From assembly GCA_963798215.1 (NCBI GenBank), contig CAWCSP010000004.1:134751-198750 (forward strand): a DNA stretch of 64,000 nt. Direction: 5' to 3'. Origin of the DNA: an uncultured Acidobacteriota bacterium (GTDB taxonomy: Bacteria; Acidobacteriota; Thermoanaerobaculia; UBA5066). The notes under the pieces are model-generated. The model was not told the origin of the DNA, did not search any database, and worked only from the letters and a program-made list of their open reading frames with translations. Below, one piece after another: positions 20,702 to 45,740 of this stretch; the first letter of the stretch is position 1, and each line of letters opens with the position of its first letter. A program made the translations under genes and the position numbers.

Positions 20702-21205
20702 ATGAAGAGGAACCGAAAGGGTTTCACGCTCATCGAGCTGCTGATCGTCGTTGCGATCATCGGAATCATCGTCGCGATCGCCATTCCGAACCTGCTCAAC
20801 GCGATCCAGCGCGCCAAGCAGAAGAGGTCCATGGCCGACATGCGCTCGGCCGGTACGGCCGCCGAGGCGTATGCCGTCGACTTCAACCACTACCCTGCGG
20901 CGGCGGGCTACTCGCTTCCGTCGGGCCTGACCGTCCCCACGGGGACGTTTGGTGCCGTGGGTTCGGGCTTCAACAAGCAGGTTGCTCCCACGTACATCCG
21001 CCTCCTTCCGATCACGGACGGCTGGCAGTCGTACTTCCTGTACGGCAACAACGGCGCAGGCAACGCGACGGCCTACGTGATCATGTCGAACGGGAAAGAC
21101 GGCACCGCAGGCACGCTCGTCGGCGGCGAGACGACGAACTTCAACGACGACATCGTCTTCACGAACGGCCAGTTCGTTCAGTACCCCGCGGGCGCGCAGC
21201 GGTAA
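20702..21205 (+). CDS. pilA: Type IV pilin (PilA-like), paralog 2
   Basis: ATG after a GGAGG RBS. MKRNRKG|FTLIELLIVVAIIGIIVAIAIPNLLNAIQRAKQKRSMADMRS. The C-terminus (FVQYPAGAQR) parallels paralog 1 (FVQFPDGAQR). 167 aa. Confidence 0.8.
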   Translation: MKRNRKGFTLIELLIVVAIIGIIVAIAIPNLLNAIQRAKQKRSMADMRSAGTAAEAYAVDFNHYPAAAGYSLPSGLTVPTGTFGAVGSGFNKQVAPTYIRLLPITDGWQSYFLYGNNGAGNATAYVIMSNGKDGTAGTLVGGETTNFNDDIVFTNGQFVQYPAGAQR

Positions 21206-21292: not shown

Positions 21293-23609
21293 GTGAAGCG
21301 CGGACTGGCGACCGGACGGACGGCGCTCCTCGGCGGCGCGCTCGGATTCGCTCTCGCGGCCGCCCTTCTCGGTCCCGGCGCGGCGGCCGGCCTCGTCCCG
21401 GCGCGCGGCGATCTCGCCGACTTCTTCTGGCCCATGAAGGCGTACACGGCCGCGCGCTGGGCGGCCGGCAGCCTCGCGCTCTGGAACCCTCTCTCGGGCT
21501 GCGGCGAGCCCTGGCTGGCGCAGCTCCAGACCGGCGTCCTCAACCCGGGCGATCTCCCGTTCCTCCTCCACGGCGCCGCGGGTCCTCTCGTCGCGATCGC
21601 CCTGCACGTCGCGATCGCGGCCGCCGGGATGGCGGCATGGCTCTCCTCCCTCGGCGTCTCGCGCGCGGGCGCCCTTGCGGGAGCGGCGACGTGGGCGGGC
21701 GGCGGCGCGTTTCTATCCCTCGTGCCGGTCTACAACAACTTCGCGACGGCCGCGTTCCTGCCCTGGCTCTTTCTCGGGGCGCGCCGGTCCGCCCGCGGGT
21801 CGCCGCCCGTTCTGTTCGCGCTCGCGGTCGCGCTCGCCTTCCTGGGCGGCGAGCCCGCCCTCGCGGCGGCCGGGTCCTGCGCCGCGGTGGCCGTCGCGCT
21901 CGCGACGCGCCGCGAGGAGCCGTCCGGCGCCGCGCCCCGGCCCGTGCGCGCGGCGCTCCGGGCGGCGGGCGGCCTCGCGCTCGGCCTCGGCCTCGCCGCT
22001 GCGGCGCTGGGGCCGTTCCTCGTCCTCGTGAGGTCGACGGGGCGCGTCTCCGGCGTGACGAGAGCGGAGGCCCTCGCGCGTCCCGTCGGCCGGGCGGACC
22101 TCGCCGACCTCGTGGTTCCGCCCGCGCCTCCCGACGAGCGGCGCCCCGCGCCGGGCCGCGGCGGATACCTCGTGACGCTCGCGCTCGGGCCCCTCCCCTT
22201 CGTCCTCGCCGCGGCGGCGGGCGCGGGGTTCGCCGCGCGCCCGCGCCTCCTCGCGTGCCTCGCCGTCCTCGCCGCGCTCGGCGTCGTCCTCGCGCTCGGC
22301 GCCCGGGGGGGGCTCGTGCCGCTCCTCTGGGACGGCGGGCTCGCGCGCGGCGTCCGCTTTCCGGCGCGCTGGTTCATCTTCGCGCACTTCGCGCTCGCCG
22401 CGGCCGCCGGCGCCGGATTCGACGGCTGGCGCGACGGGCATCTCTTCGGCTGGCCGAAGCGGGCCTCGCACGAGGCCGCGCCGCCGGCGAAGGGGCCGCT
22501 CCTCGTGTCCGCCGCTCTCGCCGCGGGCGCCCTCGGGTTTCTCGTTCTTCTCGCCGCGGCCGAGCACCGCACGCCCGGGGCCGGCGCGTGGGCGGCATTC
22601 GCCGCCGCGGCCGCGGGCTGCGGCCTCCTGTGGCGCGTCCGCGCGCGCCGAGACGCCCTCGCGACGGCACGGAGGTGCCCTCCTCGTCCTCTGTGTCGCG
22701 CTCCCGCTCCCGCTCGGCGCGCGCGACATCTTCGCCGGCGCGAGCGCGGCCGATCTCGCGCGCCCGCCGCGCGCCGTCGCGGATCTGGCGGGAGAATCCG
22801 CAGGCCGCGTCTTTCCGGTCGTGTCGGACGGAGCGCTCCTCGAGGCGTGGCTCCGGTCGGCCGGCGGGTCGTGGACGCCGGACACCGCGCTTCGCGCCCA
22901 CGAGTCGCTCTCGGGGTACGGGTCGCTTTCCGTCGGGCTCGCCTCGGCCGCCTCGCCGTCCCCCATCGGCAACCCCTGGCGCGCGCGCCTTCTGGGAGCG
23001 GCGCTCTCCGGCGGCGACGCGGGAGCGCTTCTCGGTCTTGCGAACGTTCGCCACATCGTGACGCCCTTCCCGACCTCGATGCCGGGCGCGCGGCTCGAAC
23101 TGCGGGCGGGGGAGGTTCTCCGCTACGGCCTCGAGCACCCGCTCGGGCGCGTGTTCTTCGCGCGGGAGACCGTCCTGCTCGGCGACGACGCGGCGTTCCG
23201 CTCTCTCTCGGAGCGCCCCTTCGACCCGGAGGAGCGCGCGCTCGTCGCGCCGGGAGGCGGCGAAGCGGGCGTGCTTCCGCCGCGCCGCGCGGCGAAGGGT
23301 TTCGCGGTCGCCCACGTGACGCGCGACGAGCCCGAGGCGTTCGAGGTCGGGACGGCGGCGTCCGAGCCGACGACGCTCGTCATGACGCGTTCGTGGGACT
23401 CCGGCTGGGAGGCGCGGCTCGACGGCGCGCGCGTCCCGCTCCGGCGCTGCGATCTCGCGCTGATGGCGGTCGCGATCCCCGCCGGCGAGCACCGGCTCGC
23501 GCTCGCGTACCGTCCTGTCGCGTTCCGCGCCGGCGCCGCCGTCTCCGGCGCGTCCCTCCTCGTCCTTCTCGCGCTCGTCCTCGCGGGCGGGAAGGAGACA
23601 CGCGCGTGA
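21293..23609 (+). pseudogene. YfhO-like GT-C fold membrane glycosyltransferase (candidate pilin glycosyltransferase, TfpO/TfpW-like position). Reading frame switches near 22640-22670.
   Basis: GTG start. N-terminal polytopic region in frame 2 (DFFWPMKAYTAARWAAGSLALWNPL, many TM helices). Around 22650 it continues in frame 0 (GGALLVLCVALPLPLG...) and ends with a YfhO-type C-terminal periplasmic motif (WDSGWEARLDGARVPLRRCDLALMAVAIPAGEHRLALAYRP). Total ~772 aa, typical for YfhO. Requires a single-nucleotide indel to read through. Confidence 0.55.
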
Positions 23610-24778
23610 CGTTTCCGGACGCGTTCCTCCTCGCGGTCTTCGCGGCCGTCGGCGCGATCACGGGCTCGTTCGCGAACGTCTGCATCCACCGGCTCCCGCG
23701 TGGCGAATCCGTCGTCCGCCCGCCGTCGCGCTGCCCTGCGTGCGGGACGGGCATCGCCTTCTACGACAACGTCCCGGTCCTCTCGTGGCTCGTCCTCAGG
23801 GGGCGCTGCCGCGCGTGCGGGGCGGCCATCTCGCCGCGCTACCCGCTCGTCGAGGCGGCGGGCGCCGGAATCTTCGCGGCCGCGGCGCTCCTGTGGGGCC
23901 CGACGCCGGTCGCCGCGGGCGGCGCGCTCCTCACGCTCGCGGGGCTGATTCTCGTCTTCACGGACCTCGAGACGCGGACGCTCCCGGACGAGGTCACGCT
24001 CGGGACCCTCGCCCTCGGCCTTCTCGTCGCCGCCGTGAGGGACCGTACGGGGGCGGAAGCGGGCGCGCCGTTCCTTGCCGCCCACGGCCACCTCGTCGAG
24101 GCCGCGCTCGGCGCCGCGGCGGGGGCGGCGTTCCTGGAGCTCGTCCGCCGCGCGTACGCGGCGCTCCGCGGGCAGGAGGGGATGGGCGGGGGCGACGTGA
24201 AGATGCTCGCGATGGCTGGGGCGTTCACCGGGCCCGCCGGCGTCTTCCTGACGCTCTTTTTTGCGTCCCTCGCCGGGACGCTGGTGGCGGGCGGTGCCTC
24301 TCTCGTGCGACGAGCGCGCTGGGCTGCCGCATTCTCTTTCGCGAAGGACGGGGAACGGGCGGGGACCCTCGCGGAGGCGCACGGCCTTCTCGTGCGCCCG
24401 GACGGCCGGGTGGGCGCTGCGGGCCGGAGGTGGCGCGAGGTGCCGGGCGCCTCCGCGCCCGGCGAGCCCGTCTCCGCCGACCGGCGCGCCGCGGGCCGCC
24501 TCCTCGCCTTCGTGCGCCTCGCCCGCCGCCGCGCGTCGGGCGGGGCGCCGAGCGCCTCCGGCCGGATCATCCTCGACGACGGCGCCGACTTCTTCCGCGT
24601 CCTCGCGGCGCGCGCGGCCGGGACGCCCGCGGGTCTCCTCGTCCTCCTCGCGCGCGCGGACGTGCCGTTCGGCGTCTTCCTCGCGGCGGGCGCCGTCCTC
24701 GCGTTCGTCTTCGGGCGTGTCGCTCTGGAGGCTCTCGTGGGCCCGGGTGCGGACCTTCTCTCGAGGCTCCTGCCGTGA
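23606..24778 (+). CDS. pilD: Prepilin peptidase / N-methyltransferase (A24 family, PilD) with ~100-aa C-terminal loop insertion
   Basis: GTGA overlap with the upstream gene. N-terminal tetracysteine motif CPACG...CRACG. Catalytic GGGDVKMLAMAGAFTG motif present. 390 aa. Confidence 0.85.
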   Translation: MTFPDAFLLAVFAAVGAITGSFANVCIHRLPRGESVVRPPSRCPACGTGIAFYDNVPVLSWLVLRGRCRACGAAISPRYPLVEAAGAGIFAAAALLWGPTPVAAGGALLTLAGLILVFTDLETRTLPDEVTLGTLALGLLVAAVRDRTGAEAGAPFLAAHGHLVEAALGAAAGAAFLELVRRAYAALRGQEGMGGGDVKMLAMAGAFTGPAGVFLTLFFASLAGTLVAGGASLVRRARWAAAFSFAKDGERAGTLAEAHGLLVRPDGRVGAAGRRWREVPGASAPGEPVSADRRAAGRLLAFVRLARRRASGGAPSASGRIILDDGADFFRVLAARAAGTPAGLLVLLARADVPFGVFLAAGAVLAFVFGRVALEALVGPGADLLSRLLP

Positions 24779-26554: not shown

Positions 26555-27679
26555 TCAGCCCGGCGCGGGCGCCCCGGACGACGGGCGGGCGGCGGTCTTC
26601 GCCCGCTTCTCGACGAGTCCCTTGAACTGGTCCTTGTCGAGCGACTTCTCGTAGGCCTCGTCGGGCTCGACGATGCCGGCGACGACGAGGTCCGCGAGGC
26701 TCTGGTCCATCCCGATCATCCCGGACGTGCGGCCGGTCTGGATGAGCGTCCCGATCATCGCGGTCTTGCCCTCGCGGATGTTGTTCGAGAGCGCGGACGA
26801 CCCGCGGAGCACCTCGAACGCCGCGACGCGCCCGCCGCCCTTCTTCTTGAGGAGGACCTGCGCGACGACGCCCTTGAGGACCTCGGCGAGCACCGTCCGC
26901 ACCTGCTCCTGCTCCTCGGCGGGAAAGCTGTCGATCAGCCGGTCGACGGCCTTCGCGGCGGAATTCGTGTGCAGCGTCCCGAAGACGAGAAGCCCCGTCT
27001 CGGCGGCCTGGAGGGCCATGGACATCGTCTCGAGATCTCGCAGCTCGCCGACGAGGACGACGTCCGGGTCCTCGCGGAGCGCGGCCTTCAGGGCGCCCGC
27101 GAACGTCGGGGTGTCGAACCCGAGCTCGCGATGCGAGATGAGGGACTTGTTCGGTCGGTGGAGGAACTCGACCGGGTCCTCGATCGTGACGATGTGGGAG
27201 GCGCGCGTGCGGTTGATCCAGTCGAGGAGCGCCGCGAGCGTCGTCGACTTGCCCGAGCCCGTCGGCCCGGTCACGAGGACGAGGCCGCGCGGGATCCGCG
27301 CGACGTTCGCGACGAGCGGCGGGAGGCCGAGCTCCTCGATCGCGAGGACGCGCGGCGGGATCATGCGGAGGACGGCTCCGGAGCCGTGCTCCTGGCGGAA
27401 CAGGTTCACGCGGAAGCGCGCGATCTCGCCCATCGCGTACGCGAAGTCCGTGTCGCCCGTATTGCGCCACTCGCGGAGCGGCTTCTCCGGCGCGATCGGG
27501 ACGATCAGGCTCTCGTACTCCTCCTCGGTCAGCGTCCGCCACTTGAGGCGTTCGAGGTCGCCGTCCACGCGCACCATGGGCGGCGAGCCGACGGCGAGGT
27601 GCAGGTCCGACGCCTTCTTGTCGACCATGATCCTGAGGAGCTTGTCGACGCGGTTGACGCCGGCGTGGAGCGAGCTCAT
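26555..27679 (-). CDS. pilT: Type IV pilus twitching-motility retraction ATPase PilT
   Basis: 374 aa. Walker A (GPTGSGKST), Asp box (ITIEDPVEF), Walker B (LVGELRD), His box (GTLHTNSAAKAVDRL), and the AIRNLIRE-like motif (ALSNNIREGK). Confidence 0.9.
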   Translation of the reverse strand: MSSLHAGVNRVDKLLRIMVDKKASDLHLAVGSPPMVRVDGDLERLKWRTLTEEEYESLIVPIAPEKPLREWRNTGDTDFAYAMGEIARFRVNLFRQEHGSGAVLRMIPPRVLAIEELGLPPLVANVARIPRGLVLVTGPTGSGKSTTLAALLDWINRTRASHIVTIEDPVEFLHRPNKSLISHRELGFDTPTFAGALKAALREDPDVVLVGELRDLETMSMALQAAETGLLVFGTLHTNSAAKAVDRLIDSFPAEEQEQVRTVLAEVLKGVVAQVLLKKKGGGRVAAFEVLRGSSALSNNIREGKTAMIGTLIQTGRTSGMIGMDQSLADLVVAGIVEPDEAYEKSLDKDQFKGLVEKRAKTAARPSSGAPAPG

Positions 27680-30198
27680 TCGAGGGCCTGCCTTTCCTCG
27701 GCGACCATCTTCTCGAACGGCTCCTTCTTGACGGCCTTCTCCATCGCGAGCTCCGGGTCCACCTTCCCCTCCTCGCAGAGCTTCAGGAGGGACTGGTCCA
27801 TCGTGCACATCCCGGCGAGCTGGCCGGTCTGGAGCGCGGACGGGATCTGGTGCGTCTTGCCCTCGCGGATCAGCGCCGCGACCGCGGCCGTCGTCCGGAG
27901 GATCTCGAACGCGGCGATGCGCCCTTCGAAGCCGCGCCGCGGGAGGAGCGCCTGCGAGATGACGGCCTTCAGGGAGTCCGCGAGCATGACGCGGATCTGT
28001 CCCTGCTGGCCGGGCGGGAACGAGCTGATGACGCGGTCGACGGTCGCGGGCGCGTTCGTCGTGTGGAGCGTCCCGAGGACGAGGTGGCCCGTCTCGGACG
28101 CCGTGATCGCGAGGGAGATCGTCTCGAGGTCGCGCATCTCGCCCACGAGGATGACGTCGGGGTCCTCGCGCAGCGCGGCCTTGAGGGCGCGCGCGAAGGA
28201 GGCCGTGTGGTGCGGCACCTGCCGCTGGTTCACGAGCGCCTCCTTGTTCGCGTGGACGAACTCGACCGGGTCCTCGACCGTGATGATGTGGCAGGGCCGC
28301 GTCTCGTTGATCCGGTCGATGAGCGCCGCGAGCGTCGTGGACTTGCCGCAGCCCGACGGCCCCGTCACGAGGACGAGCCCCTGGGTGAGCTTCATGATGT
28401 CCGCGACGGTCGCGGGCGGGAGGCCGATCTCCTCGATCGTCGGGACCGTCCTCGGGACGACGCGGAAGCACGCGTCGAACCCCCCGCGCTGCGAGAAGAA
28501 GTTCGCGCGGAACCGGCCGAGGCCGGGGAGCTTCAGGCAGACGTCGATCTGGCGCTCCCGCTCGAGGCGCTTCCAGTCGTCCTCCGGGAGGACTTCCCGG
28601 ATGAGCTGCGAGGCGCGGGCGCGCGTCATGACGGGGGCGTCCACGGGCTCGAGCGCGCCCTGCTGCCGCCGGTGCGGGACGAACCCGGTCGCGAGGTGGA
28701 GGTCCGAGGCGCCCCTCTTGACCGTGTCCGCGAGGTACTCGACGAGCCGGGCCGAGTCGTTCCCCGCGAGGTCGACCGTCTGGACCTCGGCCTCGACCTC
28801 GGGCAGCGCGTCGCGCGCCTCGGTCCCCTTGAGGACGCCGACGAGCCGGCGGGCCTTCTCGCGCACCTTGCCGTCGAGAGCGGGCATCTGGGACACGCGC
28901 GAGCAGATCCCCGCGATCTGGGTCTGCATCTTCTCGTCGGTCGCGAGCTTCGCCATCGCGTCGAGGATCTCCATCTGGACGTCCGGCTGCGTGACGGCGG
29001 CCTTGAACGCGTCGAGGAGCGGCTGCGCGGCCCGGGGGTCGCCGAGGTCGCCGAGCGCGGACGCGGCCGGGATCGCGAGCTCCGGGTCGCGGATGGCCGA
29101 AAGGAGGCGCGCGAGGACGGCGTCGTCGCCCTTGCCGAGGCGGCCGAGCGTCTCGACCGCGCGCGTCCTCACCCAGATGTCCTTGTCGTCGACGAGGGAG
29201 ATCCAGATCGGAAGCGCCTTGGCGTCGGCGAGGGCGAGCGTCATTTCGGAAGCCGCTTTGGCGAGTGCGGGATCGGCGTCGCGCGTGAGCTTCAGGAGCG
29301 CGTTCACGAAGCCGGGGAGGCCGTCCCGGGCGGTCTCGACGGCGCGGTCGCGCACCCAGACGAACGAGCCGCGGAAGTGCTCGAGGATCCGCCGGGCGAG
29401 GAGGTCAGGCGCGTAGGGCAGGAGGAGGCCGACCGTGCCGGTCCTCACCAGCGCGTTCCCGTCCGCGAGGAGCGGGACGATCTCGGACGTGTGGTCCTGC
29501 TTGGCCGAGAGGAGGAGCTTCTTGAGCGCCGCGAAAGACGCCTCCATGACGCGCCCGCCGGCGGTCCGGGCCATCTGGAGGACGTCGGGGAAGTAGCTCT
29601 CGTTCGGGTTCTTCTCGAGGACCGCGAGGGCCGAGAACCGGATCTCCTCGTTCTCGTCCTGCAGGAGCGGAACCGCGAGGCTCGCCGCGACGTCCGCGCT
29701 CCCCTCGAAGGACATCTCGCTGACGGCCTTCAGGGCCCGGGCGCGCACCGCCGGGTTCGAGGCGGTCAGGACGCGCCGCGCGATGTCGAACGCCGTCTGC
29801 GCCGGCAGCTCGCGCGCGAGCTCGAGGGCCGCGAGGCGGGCGAAGTCGTCTCCGCGCGACGCGATCTCCTGGAGGAACGGCGGGAGCTGGGGGCCCGCGA
29901 GGTCCTTCAGGAAACGCATGACGGCCCGCCGCACGGCCTCCGACCGCGTCTTGAGCATCGGCACGAGCGCCTCGAGTCCCGCCCGGTCGTGCCGCCTCTT
30001 GAGGATCGCGAGACCGGCGGCGCGGATCTCGGGGACCTGGTCGACGGCGGTCCACGCGACCCATTCGACGTCCGGCTTCGAGAGCGACTGGAACTTCTCG
30101 AGGAGGCCGTTCCGCTGTTCCTCGCTCGACCATTTGTGCTCGCGGAGCTGCGCGACGAACGCCGGCTCGGATCGAAGAGAGCGCAGCTTCTCTAACAC
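27676..30198 (-). CDS. PilT/PilU-family ATPase with ~470-aa N-terminal HEAT/PBS-lyase-type repeat domain (fusion)
   Basis: 840 aa, GTG start. Residues ~1-470 form repeated alpha-helical HEAT-like units (e.g. DKDIWVRTRAVETLGRLG, DPELAIPAASALGDLGDPRAAQPLLDAFK). The C-terminus carries a full PilT ATPase core (GPSGCGKST, ITVEDPVEF, LVGEMRD, GTLHT). No PilB-type tetracysteine motif. ATGA overlap with pilT. Confidence 0.8.
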   Translation of the reverse strand: MLEKLRSLRSEPAFVAQLREHKWSSEEQRNGLLEKFQSLSKPDVEWVAWTAVDQVPEIRAAGLAILKRRHDRAGLEALVPMLKTRSEAVRRAVMRFLKDLAGPQLPPFLQEIASRGDDFARLAALELARELPAQTAFDIARRVLTASNPAVRARALKAVSEMSFEGSADVAASLAVPLLQDENEEIRFSALAVLEKNPNESYFPDVLQMARTAGGRVMEASFAALKKLLLSAKQDHTSEIVPLLADGNALVRTGTVGLLLPYAPDLLARRILEHFRGSFVWVRDRAVETARDGLPGFVNALLKLTRDADPALAKAASEMTLALADAKALPIWISLVDDKDIWVRTRAVETLGRLGKGDDAVLARLLSAIRDPELAIPAASALGDLGDPRAAQPLLDAFKAAVTQPDVQMEILDAMAKLATDEKMQTQIAGICSRVSQMPALDGKVREKARRLVGVLKGTEARDALPEVEAEVQTVDLAGNDSARLVEYLADTVKRGASDLHLATGFVPHRRQQGALEPVDAPVMTRARASQLIREVLPEDDWKRLERERQIDVCLKLPGLGRFRANFFSQRGGFDACFRVVPRTVPTIEEIGLPPATVADIMKLTQGLVLVTGPSGCGKSTTLAALIDRINETRPCHIITVEDPVEFVHANKEALVNQRQVPHHTASFARALKAALREDPDVILVGEMRDLETISLAITASETGHLVLGTLHTTNAPATVDRVISSFPPGQQGQIRVMLADSLKAVISQALLPRRGFEGRIAAFEILRTTAAVAALIREGKTHQIPSALQTGQLAGMCTMDQSLLKLCEEGKVDPELAMEKAVKKEPFEKMVAEERQALE

Positions 30199-30419: not shown

Positions 30420-31211
30420 ATGGCGATGAGCGTCCGAAGGACCTGTTTCCGGCGTGCACACGGACCGTCCGCGCGGGCGGCGGGACGCGGCTTCTCGCTC
30501 GTCGAGCTCCTCGTCGTCATCGCGATCCTCGGGATCCTCGCGATCGTCGGCGGCCGGTCGATCCTCAGGGCGTGGCAGCGCCAGGAGCTCTCGAGCGCGG
30601 CGATGGACGTCAAGGTCCTCTTCCAGCGAGCGCTTCCCGAGATGCAGCGCCGCGGCATCACGACCTTCGTCCAGGTCGGCCCGCTCGTGAACAACGCCTC
30701 CGTCCGCTACATCCCGATCTACCTGATCGGAGACGCGAACGGGGACGGCCAGGTCACGGCCGGCTTCGCGAACCCGGCGCCGGTTGGCGGCGACCTCCTG
30801 ATCGACGAGTACGACGTCATCGTGCTCGGCAAGACCGGCGTGAAGGGCGTGACGGGCGCGTCCCAGAACTTCTGCCTCTCCGTCGACGACATCACGCAGG
30901 TCCAGTCCAGCCGCTGGCTGACGGCCTCCGTCGCCTGCTCCTCGCCCCTGGTTCCACCGTTCTGCGACTCGAACGACTGGACGGTTGGGCGGGCGCTCCA
31001 GTGCGACTTCCAGGGGCGCGCGATCGACACCGGCACCGGCCTCCAGCTCGCCGGGCCGGCGGAGCTCGTCCTGACGCACGTGGGCGTCGTGAGCGGGGCC
31101 TTCCAGCCGCCGACGCGGTACGTCCTCAGCATCAACCCGGTCTGGAGCGTCAGGATCCAGAAACAGGTCAAGGACGTCTCGAACACCTGGGTGGACCAGC
31201 TCGGTGGGTGA
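30420..31211 (+). CDS. Minor pilin / pseudopilin (FimT/GspH-like), prepilin-type N-terminal domain
   Basis: ...AAGRG|FSLVELLVVIAILGILAIVG class III signal with Glu+5. 263 aa. Confidence 0.7.
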   Translation: MAMSVRRTCFRRAHGPSARAAGRGFSLVELLVVIAILGILAIVGGRSILRAWQRQELSSAAMDVKVLFQRALPEMQRRGITTFVQVGPLVNNASVRYIPIYLIGDANGDGQVTAGFANPAPVGGDLLIDEYDVIVLGKTGVKGVTGASQNFCLSVDDITQVQSSRWLTASVACSSPLVPPFCDSNDWTVGRALQCDFQGRAIDTGTGLQLAGPAELVLTHVGVVSGAFQPPTRYVLSINPVWSVRIQKQVKDVSNTWVDQLGG

Positions 31212-31215
31212 CACG

Positions 31216-31764
31216 ATGAGACGGCGCACGCGCGGCTCGAGCTTCGTCGAGGTCCTCCTCGCGATGACGATCATGGCGCTCGTCCTCGTCGGGATCCTCC
31301 AGATGTTCTCGGTGTCCCTCGTGATCAACAAGGGATCGGCCGCGCGCACGCAGATGCTCTTCAAGTGCCAGCAGGTCGTCGAGAACATCCGGTACTTCTA
31401 CTTCCTGCAGCGCAGCAGCATTCCGACGCCGGCGATCCTGACGGACACCGGCCACCTGGCGTCCGGCCCGATGGCGGTCCCCGGCACGCTTCCGGTCCCG
31501 CTGAAATGGGACGTGGACCAGACTTTCCTGCCGTACGTGGCCACGGACGCGACCTGGGCCTACTGGGGACCGACGGGGGCCAACGTCGTCGAGCAGGAGA
31601 ACGCCCCGTACAAGCTCTCGTACACGATGCAGCAGGACCTCGTCCAGAACGTCTGGGTGGTCACGGTCTCCGCGATCCCGACGGACGTCGCGACGGCGAC
31701 GCGCTACTTCGGCATCGGCCTCCAGAGCGGCAAGAGGGTGGACTATGTGGCGCAGTTCCAGTAG
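31216..31764 (+). CDS. Minor pilin (PilV/GspI-like)
   Basis: MRRRTRGSS|FVEVLLAMTIMALVLVGILQMF prepilin-like N-terminus. Start placed at the ATG just after the upstream stop. Confidence 0.6.
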   Translation: MRRRTRGSSFVEVLLAMTIMALVLVGILQMFSVSLVINKGSAARTQMLFKCQQVVENIRYFYFLQRSSIPTPAILTDTGHLASGPMAVPGTLPVPLKWDVDQTFLPYVATDATWAYWGPTGANVVEQENAPYKLSYTMQQDLVQNVWVVTVSAIPTDVATATRYFGIGLQSGKRVDYVAQFQ

Positions 31765-33055
31765 GCGCCGCGCGCGCCCGCGGGGATTCACGCTCCTCGA
31801 GGCGATGGTGTCGCTGCTGCTCCTCGTGATCGTCCTGACCGTCGCGATGTCGATGCTCTTCCAGATGCGCGCCTTCGCCGAGCGGCAGCAGTTCTACATG
31901 CTCCCGCGCCAGACGGCGCGCCGGGCCACGGACTACCTCTCGTACTACATCGCCTCGGCGACGGACCTGAACGAGTGGACGACCCCGCGCACGAGCCCGA
32001 ACGCGCTCGTCATGTACTACAACGTCGGCGCGCCCGGCGTCCCGGTCCAGGCCTCGTACGACAACCTCGACGGGACCGAGGCGGGCAACGCCGTCACGGT
32101 GCCGAACGTCTCGACGAAGTTCGGAGACCTCGGGACGGACGTCATCACGCTGTTCGCGCCGACGAACCCGGCGAAGTACCTCGCGGCGCCGACGTTCGGG
32201 GGCCTCGGCTCGAACATCGACTTCTATTTCAATTTCCGCCAGGGCTGCGCGACGAACGACACCGATAACCTCGCCGCGTTCAAGACGGCGACGGGCTTCG
32301 ACGGCACGCAGAGCGCGCTCCTCATGCTCTCGGACATCAAGGGGGACTGGATCTACTTCCAGATCCCGGCCTCGGGCTACAAGGCGGACGGCCTCTGCTC
32401 GGACGTGACGACGTACAAGAACATCCACGTGGTCGCCGACACGCAGTCGGCCGCGCTCCCGGCGCCGCCGAACGGAACGACCGGCCTCGTCGATCCGGTC
32501 TCCCTCGTCACGGGCGTCCAGGTCATCTCGTTCCGCGTCCTGACGGATCCCACGGACAACGTCCCGAAGCTCCAGCAGAAGCTGGGCCTCTTCGACCCCG
32601 CCACGGACAACCCGGGGACCGCCTTCGTCAACGTGATGGAGAACGTCGAGGACCTGCAGATCACATACGTGTACGCCCTCGAGCCCGTCCTGGGCGCCGG
32701 GACGTTCTGGAACACCGCGACCAACGACCTCCGCACGACCGGCGCGGCGACGGGCGTGCCGCCGCAGGCCGGGCCCACGGCCGCGCCCGGCGGGACGGAC
32801 ATCACGAACGTGATCGGGATCCGCTTCTCGGTCACCGCCCGCTCGCCGCGGCTCGGCCTCGGGGCCCAGGGCCTGACGGACGTGCGCAGCACGGAAAACC
32901 TCGCGACGACGACGAGCCAGCACTTCCGGCCGGCCTCGGAGAACCACCCGGTCTCGATGAACCCGATCTCCCCGGCGCAGCCGGCGTACGACCTCTTCGA
33001 CCACTACCGCGCGACGGCCATGCTCATGCTGCGCAACCGGACGCTGGGGAGCTGA
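31745..33055 (+). CDS. pilW: Type IV pilus assembly protein PilW-like minor pilin
   Basis: ...[32 protein letters not shown]. 436 aa, a size typical for PilW. Overlaps the upstream gene. Confidence 0.7.
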
Positions 33056-33057: not shown

Positions 33058-33723
33058 ATGAACGAACGCGGCAGCGCCCTCGTCTCGGTCATCCTCGTCC
33101 TCCTCGTCCTCACGATCGTGGGCGTCGGGATCGCGTACTTCACGTCGATGGAGGACCGCCTCTCGGGCAACACCCGCATCGCGAAGGCGGCCTTCTACGC
33201 CGCGGACGCGGGCCTCCGCCGGGCCGAGCTCGCCCTGAGCGACACGGCGGGGCTCAAGAGCGCGTGCACGCCGATCACGCTCACGCAGATTCTCAGCACG
33301 GGCGCGACCCCGACGCTGAGCGTGCCGGGCGGCGGCAACCCCGCGATCCCGCTCGACCTCACGGGAGCGGCGTTCACGCAGGCGGACTGTCTTCCGGCCA
33401 CGGACCAGATCAACTACCTCGGCATTCCGGTCCCGGTGGTCGCCGCGACGCCGGTCGTCGACCGTGCGACGTACTCGATCTACGTGCGGAACAACATCGA
33501 CGACGCGTCCGGCTCGGCGACGCTCGACAGCGACAGCATGATCAACATCGTGTCGGTCGGAACGATCCAGCTCGTGGCCGGCACCTCGGTCACGCGCATC
33601 CTCGAGGAGCAGCTGCTCCTGTCGCCGGGCGGCTCGTTCGGCGGCACGCAGAAGGGCCTCGAGGCGGGGGGCACCAACGCCGTGCAGAGCGGACAGAGGG
33701 GCCTGAACGCGGGGAACCCATGA
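33058..33723 (+). CDS. pilX: PilX-like minor pilin (PilX N-terminal domain)
   Basis: [38 protein letters not shown] matches the PilX_N consensus (MxxxRGxALVxxLLxLxVLTxxG). Confidence 0.7.
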
Positions 33724-36700
33724 CGACGAAGCGGCTTCCCTTCCGCATTCCCGGGTGGCTCCGGCGCGCCTGCGCCGTCTTCCTGCTCGGCGTGATGGCC
33801 TTCGGCGGCGCCGGGTCCGCGCGGGCGGCCGCGACCGAAGGGTACGACCCTCTCCGGCAGATCACGGCCCAGGTCCTCCGCGCGAACCTCCTGATCCTGC
33901 AGGACCTCAGCGGGTCGATGAAGTGGGATCTCTACCAGGACCAGCTTCTCGAGGCAGAAGACTCGACCGGCCGCCTCGTCTGGATGAGCACGTGCGTCGG
34001 GCCCAACCCGGGGCCGACGCCGACGCCGACGGCGACGCCGACGCCGACGGTGACCCCGACGGTGACGCCGACGGCCACGAACACGGCGACGGCCACGCCG
34101 ACGGCCACGAGCACGTTCACGGTGACGCCGACGGCCACGACCACGAACACGCCGACCCAGACGTACACGGTGACGCCGACCACGACGCCGACGCCCACGG
34201 ACACGGCCACGGTGACGCCGACGGCGACGCCGACGGCGACGTTCACGGCCACGCCGACCGTCACGAACACGCCGACGAATACGCCGACGACGACGGCGAC
34301 CCCCACGCCCACGGACACGAAGACGATCACGCCGACGCCGACGCCGACGGTCACGCCGACGGTCACGCCGACGGTCACGATCACGCCGACGGTGACGAAC
34401 ACGCCGACGGTCACGAAGACCTTCACGCCGACGATCACGCCGACGATCACGCCCACGCCGACGGTCACGCCCACGGTCACGATCACGCCGACGAAGACGC
34501 CGACGGTCACGCCGACGAAGACGCCGACGGTGACGAAGACGCCGACGAAGACGCCCACGCGGACGCCCACGATCCCGCCGACGAGCACCTACACGGCCAC
34601 GGTGACGCCGACGGCGACGAAGACGCCGACGATCACGCCGACGGTGACGCCGACGAGTGACGCCGACGATCACGCCGACGGCGACGATCACGCCGACGAT
34701 CACGCCGACGGCGACGCCGACGATCACGCCGACGCGGACGCCGACGTCGACGAACACGCCGACGGTCACGCCGACGTTCACGCCGACGATCACGCCGACG
34801 AGGACGCCGACGGTGACGCCCACGGTGACGCCGACGATCACGCCGACGCCGACGATCACGCCGACGGCGACGCCGACGCCGACGAAGACGTTCACGCCGA
34901 CGATCACGCCGACGGCGACGGTGACGCCGACGGTGACGCCGACGGCGACGAGGACGTTCACGCCGACGTTCACGGCGACGAAGACGTTCACGCCGACGAC
35001 GACTCCGACGATCACGCCGACGATCACGAACACGGCGACGCCTTCCCCGACGGTGACGCCGACGGCCACGAAGACGTCGACGCCGACCGTGCCGTCGCCG
35101 ACGCCGACGGCGACCGTGACACCTACCAAGACGCCCACCGCAACCGTGACGCCGACGGAGAAGGTCGATCTGGAGCTGCCGCGGAACCCGCTCGTCAGGC
35201 CCGGCGGAGCGCTCGAGGAGCGCTGGGCATCCGCCCAGCCGCTCGCGACGCCGGCGCCGAAGTGGGGCCTCCCGCAGCCGGTCGCCGTCGTCGCGATGGG
35301 CGGCGGGGCGGCCGCCCAGTTCGGCATCGCCGCGCTGCTCGTGCAGGCGACGCCGACGCCGACGCCGTGGCCGACGGACCCGTCGACCGGCCTTCCGGAC
35401 GCGGGCTGCCACCAGTGGCGCTACACGCTCCACTGGGACCGCCCGTCGCGCCTCGCGACGCTCAAGAACGCCCTCGGCAACTCCGTGACGATCTACAAGA
35501 ACTTCACGGCGCCGGGCGGCGGAGCGCAGGCCGACTGGCCGGACCCGATCGTGCACAGCATCGACTGGACCGGGGCGCCGAACGCCGGGCGCGTGGAACT
35601 ACGCGTCGCCGCCCGCGGCCGCGGGAACGACGTTCGCCTACGACCACGACTGCGACGACCCGGTCAAGGGCCCGGCATGCGGTTCGCTCCCGCAGGTGGG
35701 CCCCGACGAGAAGCCCGGCATCTGGTACGAGGCCGGCTACGTCGCGCGCGTCCTCGTCGGTGGCCCCTCGTGGGACTACCCGAACCACTACGGTTCCCCT
35801 GGGCCGCCCCGGATCTCCGCGGCCACGGACCCGCAGGGCGTCGTCGTCGACTGGCAGTGGACGCTGAACTACGGCTACGGCCCGAACAACGAGGTCATCT
35901 ACGGCCTCGACCCCGGACCGCCCCTGCCTGTCTACGACATGACGACCGACGTGGGCGGCGCGTTTACGGGCTTCGACGGCGGGTCGATCCCCGGAATCAC
36001 GGGCACGCCGCTCGACTTCCCGAGCACATGGTTGACGTTGGGCGGGCTCGCGATCGGCGATCCGCCGGCCACCGGTCCCGGCACCGGCGGCGCCAACCAG
36101 CCCACGTGGAGTACATCCCTGCCGGCGGACGTCGTCGGGATCACGCGGAACCAGGTCAACTGGGGCCTCATGACGTTCCAGGACAAGTCCGCGCTCCCGA
36201 ACCCGCTGGCCTGCACGGACGACGTCTCGAACTACGACGTCAAGGTGCCGATCGTGTCGGACGACTCGGGCGACGTCTCCGCGATCGAGGACTACCTGCG
36301 CCTGAAGTACCAGTCTGGCGGCCCGCATCCGGGCCTGTCCGCGAGCGGCGGCACGCCCACGAAGCGCGCGATCAAGCTCGCGGGCGACAGCATCACGACC
36401 TCGTGGAACGCCGACCCGAAGAAACAGTGCCTCCGGCCGTGGGGCATCATCCTCTGCACGGACGGGCAGTCGAACACGTGCAACACGGGCAGCCCGTCGG
36501 CCGACGACGTATGGGGAGCGAACGGAAACCCGGCCTGCGAGGCCGACATCGCCGGGAGCGACTATCTGAACTACCCGCCGGGGGCCGCGGAGGCCGTCTA
36601 CAACCTGAGGCTGCAGTTCGGCGCGGGTGACATCATCAAGCCGCGCACGTACGCGATCGGGATCGCGCCCGAGGTCGGCCGCTGCGAGCTGGACCGCATC

Positions 36701-39153
36701 GCGTATCGCGGGCGTTCGGACGCGCGTGCCCCCCGGGGCGACGCGGGCTTCCTCCTCTACGACCCCAATGTCCCCCCCACCACGTGCGCCCTCGTGGGTG
36801 ACGCGGACCTGCCGCACATCGACCCGCCCACGCTCGACGAGAGCGCCGCGACGCCGGACCGGTTGCGACAGGACAACGGCGGTGCGGGCCCGTACGACTC
36901 CACCAAGCCCGACTACGCCTTCTTCGCCCTCGACACGACTTCGATCGTGAACGCGTTCCTGCAGATCGTGGCCGCGACCGCCGCCGGCGACTACTCGACG
37001 AGCGCGCCCGTCTCGGGCGGAGGCGTCTCGCTGGGCTCGATCGTCCTCCTGCCGTCCACGGAGTACCCGAGCTGGAAGGGCCACCTCCGGGCCTACGACA
37101 CGTCGAGCGGGACGAACGTCCTCAAGTGGGACGCCGCGGACGTCCTCAACAACCCGACACAGCCCTGGCAGCCCACGCCGGACAAGCGCGCCATCTACAC
37201 GTGGGACCCCGCGACCGGGACGCTGATCCCGGTGACCGCGGCAAACCTCGCGTCCCTGGTGGGGCTGGCCGGAGGGGACCCCGCGTTCACGGCGAACGTC
37301 GTGGACTTCATCCGCGGCTTCGACGGGACGCTCACGAACACGCCGCGCTTCAAGGCGGGGACGAACGCGTGCGACTCGACCGGATGGCTGCTCGGCCCCG
37401 TCGTCAACTCGACGCCGGCCGTCGTCGGCGGGCCGTACCAGTACAAGCAGTTCGGAAACGTCGCCGACCACCGGCCGTTCGAGGCCGTGTACGCGGCGCG
37501 CCGGCCGCTCGCGTGGGCAGGCTCGGACGACGGGCTGCTTCACGCCTTCGACTTCAACGACGGGACCGAGGTGATCGCGCTCCTGCCGCCGAACCTGCTC
37601 GCGAACGAGATCAAGCTCTACGCGAACTACGTCGCCGGGATCCCGATGAACGAGTACGTCACCGGCCAGGTGAGCCCGCTGGACCAGCACATCTGGGGCG
37701 TCGCGAACTCCCTCCGCTTCACGGACGTCTACTCTTCCGGGTTGGCCAGATGGTACCGCGGCCGGCTACAAGACGGTCGGGCTTCCTGACGGAAGGGCCC
37801 GGCGGCGACCTCATCGCCGCGATCGACGTCACGCACGTCTTCCCGGGGTACCCCACGGCGACGCCCCCGGTCCCCAACGACCCGAACTACGACTCGTCGA
37901 ACCCGGTCACGATCCTCTGGACGAAGAACTCCTCCGACTACACCGGCCTCTTCGGAAGCTGGAGCGTCCCGGCGGTCGCGGCCGACAACTTCTCGACGAA
38001 CCGGATGTTCTTCGGCGCGGGCATCAACCCGGCCAGCCTCCTGACGGCCTCCGTGGACGCGACCGCGTTCGTCGTCGACCCGACGGACGGGACCCTCAAC
38101 CACGCCGTCACGCTCACGAAGGTCGCGTCGCCCTCACCGCTCGTGGGCCAGCAGTCGTTCGCGGACGGCGTGTTCTTCCAGACCAAGGCGCCCGGCTACC
38201 TCCCGGACAACATCGCGGACCTCAGCCTCACGGCGGACCTCAACGGCCAGATCTGGTTCAACTGGAAGAACGGGGGGGCCGACTTCTCCGGAGCGCTGAG
38301 CTCGGCGGTCGGCATCGACCTCAACTCCGCGTCCGGCACGGTGAACGTCTTCACCACGGACTCGAACGGCATCACGACGGTGACGTCCGGCGCCGCCGGG
38401 CCGGCGTCTCCGCAGCCCGACTATTACTCTCCCGCGGCGACGGGTCAGGGGACGTCGGGCTGCCAGATCTACGCGATGGCGAGCGGAAGCCTCTACGAGA
38501 CGAGCCCGACCGTGTCGGGCTGGAACGTGAACCGCAGCGGCTCTCCGCCGTCCCCCTACGACTCCTCGCTGCCGGTATTCACGCCGTACCTCTACGTCGG
38601 CGTCGGCCCGAACAAGATCGGGGACCTCGCGTTCGGAGCGGCCCCGCTCGGCAAGGACCCGAACCAGCAGTACATCCTGAAACAGCGCATCGGCGGGGAG
38701 GTCCCGGACGCGATTCCGCTCCCGCCGGGCGATCCGGCGCTGGCGACCGGCCAGACGAAGCTCGGGCCGCGCACGCAGGTCACGTCCTCTCCGATCATGG
38801 TCGTGGACAGCACGGGCACGGGAGCGGAGAACGCGATCTTCCTGCTGTACGACCCGGACACGGGCTGCAACGGGACGTCGTACGTCGTGATCCTCACCTT
38901 CCAGTCCGGCACGGCGTGCACCGCGCCCACGATCGGGCCCGCGTCCGGCTCGCCCAACACGACGGGAATCGTGGTCCTGGGCGCCGGCCCCGGCGCCGCC
39001 AGCGGCATCACGTTCACGAACACGGGTCTCGTCGCCGCGCAGAGCGGCGTCGGTCCGACCGCGAGCGCGAGCCTCGTGTCCATCGGCATCGACATCAAGG
39101 CGCTCGCCGGGGTGCCGACCTTCCAGCCGGTCTGGTGGAGGGACGTGAAGTAA
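33720..39153 (+). pseudogene. pilY1: PilY1-like type IV pilus tip adhesin with ~385-aa Thr-Pro tandem-repeat linker. Coding sequence is split over four frame segments (about 3 frameshifts).
   Basis: ATG at 33720 (TGATG overlap with pilX), signal peptide. A TPTx repeat runs in frame 0 to ~34653 and continues in frame 1 from 34657, with an extra A in ACGCCGACG[A]GTGACG. Around 35585 it switches to frame 2 (...[12 protein letters not shown]...). This segment carries a vWA-like ILCTDGQSN motif and the PilY1 beta-propeller signature AGSDDGLLHAFDFNDGTEV. Around 37760 it switches to frame 1 (...GPGGDLIAAIDVTHVFPGYP..., the PilY1 C-terminus), ending at 39153. Confidence 0.7.
34005..35158 (+). repeat. 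Codon-periodic tandem repeat (ACG CCG ACG NNN)n encoding a (T-P-T-x)n linker inside pilY1
   Basis: ~1.15 kb of imperfect 12-nt units ([16 protein letters not shown]...). The same DNA read out of frame gives the D/H/A-rich pseudo-ORF. Confidence 0.8.
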
Positions 39154-39186: not shown

Positions 39187-40434
39187 ATGGACGCGGGACC
39201 GGCCCGCCGGCGCTCCGCCGGCTTCTCCCTGGCGGAGCTGCTGCTCACGCTCGCCCTTCTCGCCCTCGTCGTGTGGGTCGTCCTGCGCATCGTGGACCGC
39301 GGGACGCGGATCCGGGACGCGGCGCCGCCCATGACGGGCCCCGAGGCGGTCCTCGACGCGGCCTTCCGGATGGTCCTGAAGGACGTGCAGGCTGCCGGAA
39401 CCGGCGGCCTCCCCGCGCGCGACGCGTTCCGGCCGGTCGCGGACAACACTCCGGCGGCGGGCCGCGCCGCGTATCGGACGGTCCGGGGCGAAGCAGTTGC
39501 GGTCCGGCCCGGCACGGACCAGCTCGGCCTGAGGGGCGTCATCCGGTCTCCACTGGTGCCCCTGGAGCCACGCGTCCCCGGGACGGACGAGCCCGTATCC
39601 ACCCGCATGCGCGAGCGCCCGGACGCCGTGCCCGTCCGAGCCCCCTCCGGCGCCGGGACGGCGGCGGCGCGCGCCCGCCTCGCGGAAGTCTCCGCGTCGG
39701 GGAAGGCGTTCTTCCTCGTGGGCGACACCGCGGGACTGTGGGCCGTTGCGCGGGTCGCGTCGTCCGCGCCGGGCCCGGGCGAGGGCCCGCTCGACCTCGT
39801 CCTCGACTTCACGGACCCCGACGCGCGCGCCCTGAACGGGGACGGCGGACCCGACGCCTGCGCGCACCTCGGGGACGCCGCCTCCGGCGGCGTCTTCGAC
39901 GATCTCGTCTGGTTCGTCGCGGAAGGGCCCGCGGGCGTCCCGCCCGACTACGTGAGAGGGAGCGATCCGGACTCGCTCCGCCATCCTCATCCGTACCTCG
40001 CCGTCGGCGTCGCGGCCGGAAACGGCCGGTGGGAGATCCGGGAAGCCGGCGAGGACGTCGAGGACCTGCAGGTGGCCTGGGGGTTCGCGGGCGCGACGCC
40101 CGGCCTCGAGTGGCGCGGCGACGCGCCGAAAAGCGCGGTCCCGGGCCCGGACGATCTCGCGGACCTTCCCGGACGCCCCAGACTCGAGGCGCTCCGGATC
40201 GCCCTCGTCGCCCGGTCGCCCCTGCGCTTGCCGCGCAGCAGCGGATCGCCCGCGCCGGAATTCACGGTCCCGCTGAACGGGCCCGCGCCGGGCTCGGTGT
40301 TCGGGGGGGCGCCGATCGGATGGGACGCAGAACCGCGACGCCGGATTCGTTTCGACCGCGAGGTGCGCGAGGAGCTCGTCAAGCTGCCCGCGCTCGCCGG
40401 GGCGCGGCTGGGACGCGCCGCCCACGGGGTGTAA
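39187..40434 (+). CDS. Pilin-like protein with prepilin-type N-terminus (minor pilin, 415 aa)
   Basis: MDAGPARRRSAG|FSLAELLLTLALLALVVWVVL. Follows pilY1, as pilE/fimU-like genes often do. Confidence 0.6.
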   Translation: MDAGPARRRSAGFSLAELLLTLALLALVVWVVLRIVDRGTRIRDAAPPMTGPEAVLDAAFRMVLKDVQAAGTGGLPARDAFRPVADNTPAAGRAAYRTVRGEAVAVRPGTDQLGLRGVIRSPLVPLEPRVPGTDEPVSTRMRERPDAVPVRAPSGAGTAAARARLAEVSASGKAFFLVGDTAGLWAVARVASSAPGPGEGPLDLVLDFTDPDARALNGDGGPDACAHLGDAASGGVFDDLVWFVAEGPAGVPPDYVRGSDPDSLRHPHPYLAVGVAAGNGRWEIREAGEDVEDLQVAWGFAGATPGLEWRGDAPKSAVPGPDDLADLPGRPRLEALRIALVARSPLRLPRSSGSPAPEFTVPLNGPAPGSVFGGAPIGWDAEPRRRIRFDREVREELVKLPALAGARLGRAAHGV

Positions 40435-44110: not shown

Positions 44111-44133
44111 GGAATGTAGACTACTTCGTGGCC

Positions 44134-44772
44134 ATGCCGGTTTCGATCGAGCGCGACCTCGACATTCTCGAGAAGGGCCTCACCTTGCTCAAGGTCGAGT
44201 ACGAGCGCTTCTTCGCGGGTGGCCTGAAGACGCCTCCCGCCGCGTCCCGCCGGAGGCTCGACGAGCACCTGCGGCGAGTCGGGAACGTCGAGCTCGACCG
44301 GGCCGCCGAGAAGTTCCGGCTCCAGGCGCTCGAGAGCCGCTACACGGCGATGAAGGAGCTCTGGGACAAGCGTCTGGCCGCGAAGGAAGAGGGGAGGAGC
44401 CTCCTCCGCGTGACGCGGACCGCCTCGGCCCCCCCGCCGGCCCCCCCGGCGCCGCCGCCGGCCGCGGCGCCGCCGCCAGCCCGCCGGTCGAAGACGGTGT
44501 CCTCCGACGGGGAGGCCTCGACCTCCGTAAAAGCGATCGGACGGGGCGACATGAGGTCGCTCTTCGACCGTTTCTGCGCGGCGCGTGTGGCGGCCGGGGA
44601 GGACGTGTCGAAGCTCCGTTACGAGCGATTCGAGGACCTGGTGAAGAAACAGGCTGCCGAGATCCGAAGGGCGACGGGCGCGACGCGTCTCGCGTTCGAG
44701 GTCCAGACGCGCGACGGGAAGGTCCGCCTCGTCGGCCGACCGCTGTCCGCGCCCGCGAAAGGGAACCCATGA
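44134..44772 (+). CDS. Hypothetical protein (alpha-helical, Pro/Ala-rich linker)
   Basis: Coding-like composition and codon bias. ATGA overlap with the next gene. Confidence 0.45.
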   Translation: MPVSIERDLDILEKGLTLLKVEYERFFAGGLKTPPAASRRRLDEHLRRVGNVELDRAAEKFRLQALESRYTAMKELWDKRLAAKEEGRSLLRVTRTASAPPPAPPAPPPAAAPPPARRSKTVSSDGEASTSVKAIGRGDMRSLFDRFCAARVAAGEDVSKLRYERFEDLVKKQAAEIRRATGATRLAFEVQTRDGKVRLVGRPLSAPAKGNP

Positions 44773-45740
44773 CGACTGCCCGAAGCCTCCGCTCCGCCGC
44801 CGTTCTCTTCCTTCTGGCGCTCGGCCTGCCTGCGGCGGCCAAGGACGTCTACAAAGGGTTTCTCGATCCCGGCAACCCGCAGCACCGGGCGACGCTCGAC
44901 ATCCTCGCACGCCTCGAGAAGACGCCGAACGACGCGTCGCTCCACAACGACCTCGGCTGCCTGATCGCGCGGGACGGCTTCTGGCGCGACGCCCTGCGCG
45001 AGTTCGAGACCGCCGAGAAGCTCGACAAGAAGGACGGCCGCGCGCCGTACAACGCGGGCCTCGTCCAGATGACGCGCGGCGAGTGGGGCTCGGCGCGGTC
45101 GGCGTTCAAGAAGTCCGTCGACCGCGACCCGGGAAACTGGCCCGGGTGGTGGATGCTCGGCTTTGCCGAGGAAAAGCTCGGGAACGCGGATTCCGCGGTC
45201 AAGGCCTACGCGCACTCGCTGCGGGTGGACACGTCGCTCTTCGACGTGAAGCGCAATCCGTATGCGGTGCAGTCGCGCCTGAAGGCGCGCGTGTTGCTCG
45301 TGACGTACGACGCGCGCATCGCCCGCGCGGCGCTGCCCCTGACCGAGCAGCTCGCCCAGCCCGAGATCCTGACGGCGTTCCAGTCCGGCCACGTCTCCGT
45401 CGCGACGGCGCCCGGCTCCGTCGTCCCCGAAGACCCGCGCGTGCACGCGGCCGTCCCGGTGGGACCGGGCGGCGGCCCGGCGGGTCCTGCCGTGGCGGCG
45501 CCGGCCGGGGGCGGCGCGGTCGTGACGTCCGTTCCTCCCGTGAGCTCGAGCCGCCCGTCTCCTCCAGCGCCCGCGTCCGGGGCCGTCCGGCCCGCGGGCT
45601 CCGGCGGCCTCGAGGAAGCGCCGCCGTGGTTCCCGCAGACGTCGCCCGCCGGCCCCGCCCCGCCGAAGGCGCCTCAGGCTCCGAGCACGACGAATCCCGG
45701 CAGTACGCCTCCGCCGGCTCCGGGCCCCGGCGTCGGCTGA
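44769..45740 (+). CDS. Secreted TPR-repeat protein with Pro-rich C-terminal tail
   Basis: Signal peptide, then TPR-like helices (ASLHNDLGCLIARDGFWRDALREFETAEKLD..., GWWMLGFAEEKLGNADSAVKAYAHSL). Confidence 0.6.
   Translation: MTTARSLRSAAVLFLLALGLPAAAKDVYKGFLDPGNPQHRATLDILARLEKTPNDASLHNDLGCLIARDGFWRDALREFETAEKLDKKDGRAPYNAGLVQMTRGEWGSARSAFKKSVDRDPGNWPGWWMLGFAEEKLGNADSAVKAYAHSLRVDTSLFDVKRNPYAVQSRLKARVLLVTYDARIARAALPLTEQLAQPEILTAFQSGHVSVATAPGSVVPEDPRVHAAVPVGPGGGPAGPAVAAPAGGGAVVTSVPPVSSSRPSPPAPASGAVRPAGSGGLEEAPPWFPQTSPAGPAPPKAPQAPSTTNPGSTPPPAPGPGVG

Follow-up and report, generated by a model that had tools for sequence, protein, structure and literature searches.

Type IV pilus tip proteins of the PilY1/PilC family include PilY1 of Pseudomonas aeruginosa (PDB: 3HX6), PilC of Neisseria and Kingella, and the PilY1 paralogues of Myxococcus xanthus. 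Here we describe a member of this family encoded on a stretch of 64,000 nucleotides from an uncultured Acidobacteriota bacterium of the Thermoanaerobaculia (lineage UBA5066; GenBank assembly GCA_963798215.1, contig CAWCSP010000004.1, positions 134,751 to 198,750), which is henceforth termed the window and supplies the coordinates used below. The gene (33720-39153, plus strand) encodes a protein that has in common with the above the C-terminal β-propeller (PF05567; 3HX6), a predicted N-terminal domain of the von Willebrand factor A (vWA) type with DxSGS...T...D motifs, a gene position after minor pilins and PilX, and secretion by means of a signal peptide. Unlike them, it reaches 1809 residues, carries a 381-residue Thr-rich tract together with a module of about 80 residues in the predicted β1-α1 connection of the vWA domain, and has a second insertion, of about 225 residues, between α1 and β2; moreover, its sequence similarity to these proteins is apparent at the profile level only.

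The Pro-Thr boxes of CenA and Cex from Cellulomonas fimi, like the PT linkers of other glycoside hydrolases, are Pro-rich, extended, extracytoplasmic segments with Thr at alternate positions, and are natively O-glycosylated. The window tract resembles these boxes in its strict Thr alternation, its richness in Pro and its extracytoplasmic location. However, the boxes measure about 20 residues and join two domains, whereas the tract measures about 380 residues, lies inside a single domain, and has Pro at only about 40% of the positions between successive Thr residues (x positions). The PTS domains of mucins are likewise long, Pro/Thr-rich and of low complexity, and by analogy with them the tract may be expected to be extended and densely O-glycosylated; in contrast to the tract, they are eukaryotic and lack a strict two-residue alternation.

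Two bacterial glycosylation systems are also pertinent. In streptococci, the YfhO-family C-type glycosyltransferases (GT-C) PgtC2 of S. pyogenes and PgfM1/M2 of S. mutans, the latter with the adhesins Cnm and WapA, glycosylate Ser/Thr-rich, disordered extracytoplasmic regions, including those of adhesins (PMC12041528). The window is comparable in that a YfhO GT-C is encoded along with genes for a surface structure, and in that a Thr-rich, low-complexity part of an adhesin is the putative substrate; however, the streptococcal systems are Gram-positive, with identified GtrB/PgfS partners, whereas ours belongs to a diderm phylum and no partners were seen in the window. In Pseudomonas, GT-C enzymes encoded next to pilA glycosylate pilins (bioRxiv 10.1101/2020.04.19.049825). 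The P. aeruginosa TfpO/PilO and TfpW genes resemble that of the window in coding for polytopic glycosyltransferases directly downstream of the major pilin, but the enzymes belong to the TfpW or Wzy_C families rather than YfhO, and the known substrates of TfpO/TfpW are major pilins and not PilY1.

A search of the literature on PilY1 proteins with Thr-rich or glycosylated linkers, and on the pili of Thermoanaerobaculia, recovered no prior description, and the PilY1 variant considered here, which is real and conserved, has apparently not been described before. The reading that we favor, with a probability of roughly 0.6, is that of a PilY1 protein whose vWA domain bears a lineage-wide (x-Thr)n loop, whose gene is interrupted in the window by artefactual breaks, and whose loop would form an O-glycosylated brush.

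The threonine-alternating tract and its placement

The affinities of the protein emerged from a profile built from it and 34 relatives, which matched the C-terminal domain of P. aeruginosa PilY1 in 3HX6 with E=4.6e-17. Furthermore, PF05567 was matched by 22 of the 35 family members (best E=3.3e-12), and an AlphaFold2 (AF2) model of the tract-free relative P0050, with a predicted local distance difference test score (pLDDT) of 75.7, had 3HX6 as its best PDB match (E=9.6e-12). Along with the minor pilin and PilX_N genes upstream, these results bear out the PilY1-like assignment given in a preliminary description of this DNA: this pilus supercluster of Thermoanaerobaculia includes a gene for a type IV pilus protein of the PilY1 family, with a signal peptide, a predicted vWA domain and a C-terminal β-propeller. 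By inspection, residues 1-36 (33720-33827) constitute a Sec-type signal peptide (...SARA/AATEG), and the propeller, as delineated by the profile match, by PF05567 in relatives and by the P0050 model, occupies 37037-39150 and contains an invariant YDPDxGCNG motif (38848-38874). In P. aeruginosa PilY1, a Ca-binding loop of the propeller controls pilus extension and retraction. Homologues are mostly confined to metagenome-assembled genomes (MAGs) of Thermoanaerobaculia and other Acidobacteriota.

The tract itself (34014-35157, plus strand) comprises 381 codons in the Thr/Pro frame, and is composed of 50% Thr and 21.5% Pro. With Tandem Repeats Finder (TRF), an array of period 12 was detected at 34013-35114 (91.5 copies; 72% matches; score, 381); TRF and translation agree with the repeat of 12-nucleotide units, at 34005-35158 and coding for about 385 residues, that had been noted earlier. 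The earlier rendering of this repeat as (Thr-Pro-Thr-x)n captures the spacing between Pro residues, which peaks at a lag of four, but not the underlying period, which is two residues: in a single register, 177 of the 190 alternate positions are Thr, and Pro occurs at 39% of the x positions. Thus '(TPTx)n' is a fair shorthand for a degenerate Pro-Thr box, the strict form of which is (x-Thr)n. This single-register alternation holds at 94-98% over 280-370 residues in four homologous proteins, three intact homologues among them. V/A/I/F are enriched at the x positions, where K/R also outnumber D/E (15 versus 2). The window has a G+C content of about 72%. Of the Thr codons of the tract, 92% are ACG, and of the Pro codons 87% are CCG. 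The longest exact repeat in the tract DNA is about 33 nucleotides, and exact repeats of at least 36 nucleotides are absent from it.

The N-terminal segment that precedes the tract (33828-34013) includes the predicted vWA strand β1 and the metal ion-dependent adhesion site (MIDAS) motif D62-L-S64-G-S66 (33903-33917), and ends in a conserved Cys (STCVG). The order of domains given in the preliminary description, with the vWA-like domain downstream of the tract, must be revised in this respect. The tract is followed by the module of about 80 residues (35158-35400; LPRNPL...PVAVVA...GIAALL...ATPTPTP), which occurs only in tract-bearing homologues, and then by the rest of the vWA domain (35401-37010), where a second conserved Cys (AGCHQW) completes a pair flanking tract and module. 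The predicted elements in this part are α1 (35446-35475), β2 (36155-36178), the GGTPT motif (residues 876-880; 36347-36361) and β4 with its TDG (36449-36475; CTDG at residues 912-915), all on the plus strand. The latter two motifs come about 800 residues after the first, and the MIDAS elements DxSxS...T...D, conserved across the family, stand in their canonical order. In an independent vein, the module is partly duplicated in P0034, P0046 and P0023 (LPRNPL / LPREPH).

Comparison with relatives locates the insertion precisely. In the tract-free P0048-P0051, 'LLIVLDISGSM' is joined to helix α1 by about 45 residues. The gap between the same two anchors spans 3-90 nucleotides in 9 loci and 680-1740 nucleotides in about 28, and a Thr-alternating tract of 124-446 residues is present at exactly this site in about 28 of the 38 loci from Thermoanaerobaculia/Holophagae. 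In Foldseek searches, the model of the window vWA region matched almost exclusively vWA domains, with complement C2a as the best (E=5.9e-4), the others being factor B, PTMP1, TEM8, SpaC, collagen VI and integrin I; at the profile level, too, factor B gave a weak match. The P0050 model likewise has a confident β1 strand at DxSGS (E38-44) and the expected order of strands and helices. The tract is therefore predicted to be inserted between the MIDAS DxSGS and helix α1, in the β1-α1 connection of the vWA domain, where it would form a loop. The insertion is lineage-wide, its length and register are kept, and the changes within it are mainly substitutions at x positions.

Certain results weigh against this placement and against the family assignment. 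When searched alone, the window protein gives no Pfam match and does not reach PF05567, and no VWA family in Pfam was matched by the vWA regions even at E<=10. Further, the AF2 model of a tract-trimmed window construct attained a pLDDT of 59.6 and left residues 1-153 unresolved, with both the N-terminal strand and the post-tract module at about 30. As this model is unresolved N-terminally, the loop topology depends on the logic of the motifs and on what the P0050 model shows; and because AF2 left that strand unresolved and Pfam sees no VWA, we consider the assignment of the Rossmann-like α/β vWA fold to be of moderate strength.

A rival view, proposed in the preliminary description, is that the tract is a slippage-prone interdomain spacer of variable length, which keeps the adhesin at a distance from the pilus tip. 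The 6/12-nucleotide periodicity of the DNA accords with this, as do the differences in tract length between distant species (124-446 residues) and the occurrence of indels in multiples of two residues, as slippage would give. However, apart from a single inserted A, the tract is of the same length in the window and in L001, a locus 99.4% identical to it; it is collinear with that of L002, at 83% protein identity, with 381 versus 375 residues and gaps of only 2, 4 or 6 residues; and in three further species (L005, L007 and L009), at 73-80% identity, the two anchors are the same distance apart. The comparison of copy number among strains, which had been suggested as a check, hence detected no difference from L001, and such stability argues against slippage-driven variation. 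Moreover, the units are degenerate and offer no exact repeat longer than that noted above, and both ends of the tract return to one domain, so that, as placed here, it would be anchored at both ends rather than set between domains. In the PilY1 proteins that have been studied, from P. aeruginosa and M. xanthus, it is the C-terminal propeller and not the N-terminus that faces the minor pilins, which also counts against a spacer. Taking these points together, we hold this view to be very unlikely.

Reading frame and frame breaks

The preliminary description had treated 33720-39153 as one continuous gene. Its ATG indeed overlaps the stop codon of pilX (ATGA), but the interval of 5434 nucleotides has the form 3n+1, and no such open reading frame (ORF) is present in the ORF list. 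Instead, the phase of G+C at third codon positions (GC3) and the translations reveal that the coding frame moves from 0 to 1, 1 to 2, 2 to 0 and 0 to 1 without any gene boundary. The first of these four breaks is an extra A (ACG AGTG ACG) at 34656, inside the tract; the second is one extra base in GCCGGGCGC at 35584-35587; the third is a deletion of 2 nucleotides at 37739-37740, relative to L001, which has SSVSWPDG where the window has SS-GWPDG; and the fourth is an extra C at 37782 (GTCGGGCTTCC versus GTCGGGTTCC). Once these lesions are removed, the gene encodes the 1809-residue protein with a single terminal stop and no in-frame stops, and GC3 periodicity is intact in every frame-shifted segment. 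Pfam searches with the separate ORF pieces returned nothing.

A literal reading from the ATG at 33720 enters a D/H-rich frame at residue 313, which continues to 35867. This frame was rejected as coding, since it arises only after the window-private extra A and is not conserved. The Thr/Pro frame, which the preliminary description had preferred, is the true one: about 28 loci keep it, as do the intact homologues P0034, P0046 and P0023. As a separate matter, the public gene calls for L001 place two antisense 'VGV-rich' ORFs (8240-8896 and 8897-9634 of that locus, corresponding to about 33932-35420 of the window, minus strand) inside the Thr/Pro tract; these are shadow-frame artefacts that stand in for the true gene in the annotation.

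To evaluate the breaks, we used L001 and L081, which belong to an ENA assembly whose contigs are named in Flye style and are 99.4-99.7% identical to window positions 11291-49152, as well as a survey of 78 loci from GTDB species representatives along with L001 and L080. All four pilY1 breaks are absent from L001/L081 and are hence private to the window. L001/L081 in turn have private breaks of their own, in pilY1 (a missing C at window position 35659), in the gene for a PilB-like ATPase and in a pilin gene, while the window has a fifth, a +1 frameshift at 22643 in the YfhO gene discussed below. Across the survey, frame switches in pilY1 were found in 7 of 14 Flye-named long-read loci, compared with 1 of 41 among the short-read loci (Fisher p=1e-4), with 6-8 switches per gene in some of the former. 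Comparison of the window with L001 in the repaired frame gave a ratio of nonsynonymous to synonymous polymorphism (pN/pS) of 0.32 for the entire gene and 0.33 for the tract. Because such shifts are found almost only in Flye-type long-read MAGs, we regard the four breaks as probably being consensus errors in a gene that is intact in the cell.

This conclusion has to be set against the possibility of a genuine pseudogene, in which the breaks would be real mutations and the strain would have lost PilY1. In its favor, over the 37.9 kb of comparison, 4 of the 5 frameshifting indels that are private to the window fall in pilY1 (binomial p=0.002), the density of single-nucleotide polymorphisms (SNPs) between window and L001 peaks in the same gene, and L001 has its own break there; the first two observations speak against treating the breaks as errors. 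We read this clustering of indels and SNPs as strain heterogeneity that degrades the consensus of a fast-evolving gene. On the other side, each break is confined to one assembly, private breaks also affect genes other than pilY1 in both assemblies, and their association with Flye-type assemblies, the pN/pS of 0.32, the lack of in-frame stops after repair and the preserved GC3 phase also count against a pseudogene, which appears rather improbable. We also entertained programmed frameshifting, or phase variation, as the origin of the breaks, as three of the four shifts look like +1 insertions; it was rejected, and we give it next to no credence, given that 34656 lacks a slippery homopolymer or heptamer, that the break sites are shared with neither L001 nor any other locus, and that intact homologues read straight through.

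Two other differences from L001 are worth recording. At about 35940-35975 (repaired residues 742-752), 5 of 11 residues differ between the window and L001, for which TADTTGAQTGFPGG is the second sequence compared; this lies in the region of highest SNP density, residues 600-900, where pN/pS is 0.45, and may represent a variable surface patch. At 44784, a single-base difference falls between or within two short ORFs, of which 44119-44736 has no Pfam match and 44868-45461 is a TPR protein; possibly, one or other assembly has a further frameshift here.

The pilus locus and the question of glycosylation

Directly upstream of pilY1 lies pilX (PilX_N; 33058-33723), which is preceded by three genes for minor-pilin-like proteins with N_methyl domains (30420-31211, 31204-31764 and 31745-33055), and downstream lies a further pilin-like N_methyl gene (39187-40434) that is syntenic in relatives. 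Further to the left, two tandem genes for major-pilin-like proteins (N_methyl + T2SSG; 20055-20531 and 20723-21205) stand directly 5' of a gene for a GT-C membrane glycosyltransferase (21293-23609), which is followed by the prepilin peptidase gene pilD (23606-24778); all those with an assigned orientation are on the plus strand. The window also encodes a histidine kinase, PilT-like and PilB-like ATPases and a sigma54 response regulator, and the order of the pilus genes is kept in L001/L081, L080 and L082.

The GT-C transferase that had previously been remarked upon in this locus is a YfhO-family protein, with a match to PF09586 at 33.4 bits (cut-off 28.5; E=2.3e-8). Among the 120 homologues listed, which are about 740-860 residues long, all but one match PF09586 and several are named YfhO, and a copy in L081, P0052, is 98% identical and has an intact ORF of 771 residues. 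Its position after the pilins and before pilD is kept even in a genome where the identity of PilY1 is down to 46%.

Some features of these neighboring genes are of interest in their own right. The tandem major-pilin-like proteins have near-identical N-termini and end in ...FVQ(F/Y)P(D/A)GAQR; in L081 a 2-nucleotide difference at 21058-59 alters the end of the second gene. In the region of 27676-30198 and 26555-27679 (both minus strand), the PilB-like ATPase begins with HEAT repeats (PF13646) in its N-terminal part, an uncommon feature among the ATPases of pili, and in L080 the PilB-like protein is called as one ORF of 1222 residues, fused to the adjoining PilT-like ATPase.

We examined the co-occurrence of the YfhO gene and the tract through a look-up of gene context in three tract-bearing and two tract-free genomes; a tblastn search with the YfhO protein in 79 loci, whose flanks of 8 kb end short of that gene, gave no useful match. 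In the tract-free Thermoanaerobaculia loci L083 (13331-18918) and L084 (12340-20335), pilY1 is followed by GT-C-like DUF2298 and PMT_2 genes and a methyltransferase gene, and a gene for a UbiA prenyltransferase is situated among the minor pilin genes in L084 and just upstream in L083. These genes hint that the pilus operon is linked to a glycosylation system that uses polyprenyl-phosphate sugars. For P0048, the gene context, which was available without DNA, shows no GT-C gene.

Given the YfhO precedent and the GT-C genes in or beside pilus operons, glycosylation of pilus components in this class is plausible. Three observations temper its attribution to the tract: the YfhO gene adjoins the major pilin genes, which possibly encode its real substrate; GT-C genes accompany tract-free PilY1 as well, such that the link is not tract-specific; and no gene for a partner GT-A or flippase was seen within the window. 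The major pilins would be an equally good candidate substrate.

An alternative is that the tract is an unglycosylated Thr ladder, in which the (x-Thr)n chain is itself a binding or mechanical element, either as an extended strand whose all-Thr face contacts ordered surfaces (minerals, polysaccharide or ice-like water, for example), or as an entropic spring. The near-perfect register in the four homologues, the bias of the x positions toward V/A/I/F and toward K/R over D/E, and the purifying selection on the tract are in keeping with such a role. Yet register retention could follow from 6-nucleotide slippage units alone, Pro-Thr boxes with the same alternation are classical glycosylated linkers, as in CenA and Cex, and GT-C genes are consistently linked to these operons. 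On balance, we deem an unglycosylated ladder unlikely and retain the glycosylated loop as the favored interpretation.

Proposed mechanism and significance

Under the glycosylated-loop interpretation, the tract would be disordered and extended, a loop whose base is closed by the vWA fold and possibly by the conserved flanking Cys pair. It would be densely O-glycosylated in the periplasm by a GT-C enzyme dependent on polyprenyl-phosphate-sugar, for which the YfhO-family gene of the same supercluster is the obvious candidate. The product would be a mucin-like, protease-resistant brush at the far end of the pilus, beside the site of metal-dependent binding, and this brush would modulate or add to adhesion rather than serve as a stalk. 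In its most specific form, namely a register-locked loop of about 300-450 residues at the MIDAS face, which is a conserved module of Thermoanaerobaculia/Holophagae and is converted by the YfhO GT-C into a mucin-like glycan brush, the proposal is offered tentatively, as we are more inclined to doubt than to accept it in full. If true, no mucin-like element would have been known before in a tip protein of type IV pili, and O-glycosylation of proteins by a YfhO-type enzyme would have its first case in a diderm phylum, with the tract and the YfhO GT-C as a candidate pair of substrate and enzyme.

On a more practical note, pilY1 is a hotspot of frameshift errors in long-read MAGs, in which gene callers then yield spurious antisense 'VGV' ORFs; as a consequence of these two factors, the family is largely mis-annotated in public data. 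The tip proteins of type IV pili decide what a cell adheres to and senses, and the Acidobacteriota are abundant in soil and sediment, with a surface biology that is almost unknown. A conserved and very long loop of alternating Thr by the metal site of PilY1, in linkage with GT-C genes, would suggest that pili of the Acidobacteriota adhere by way of glycans.

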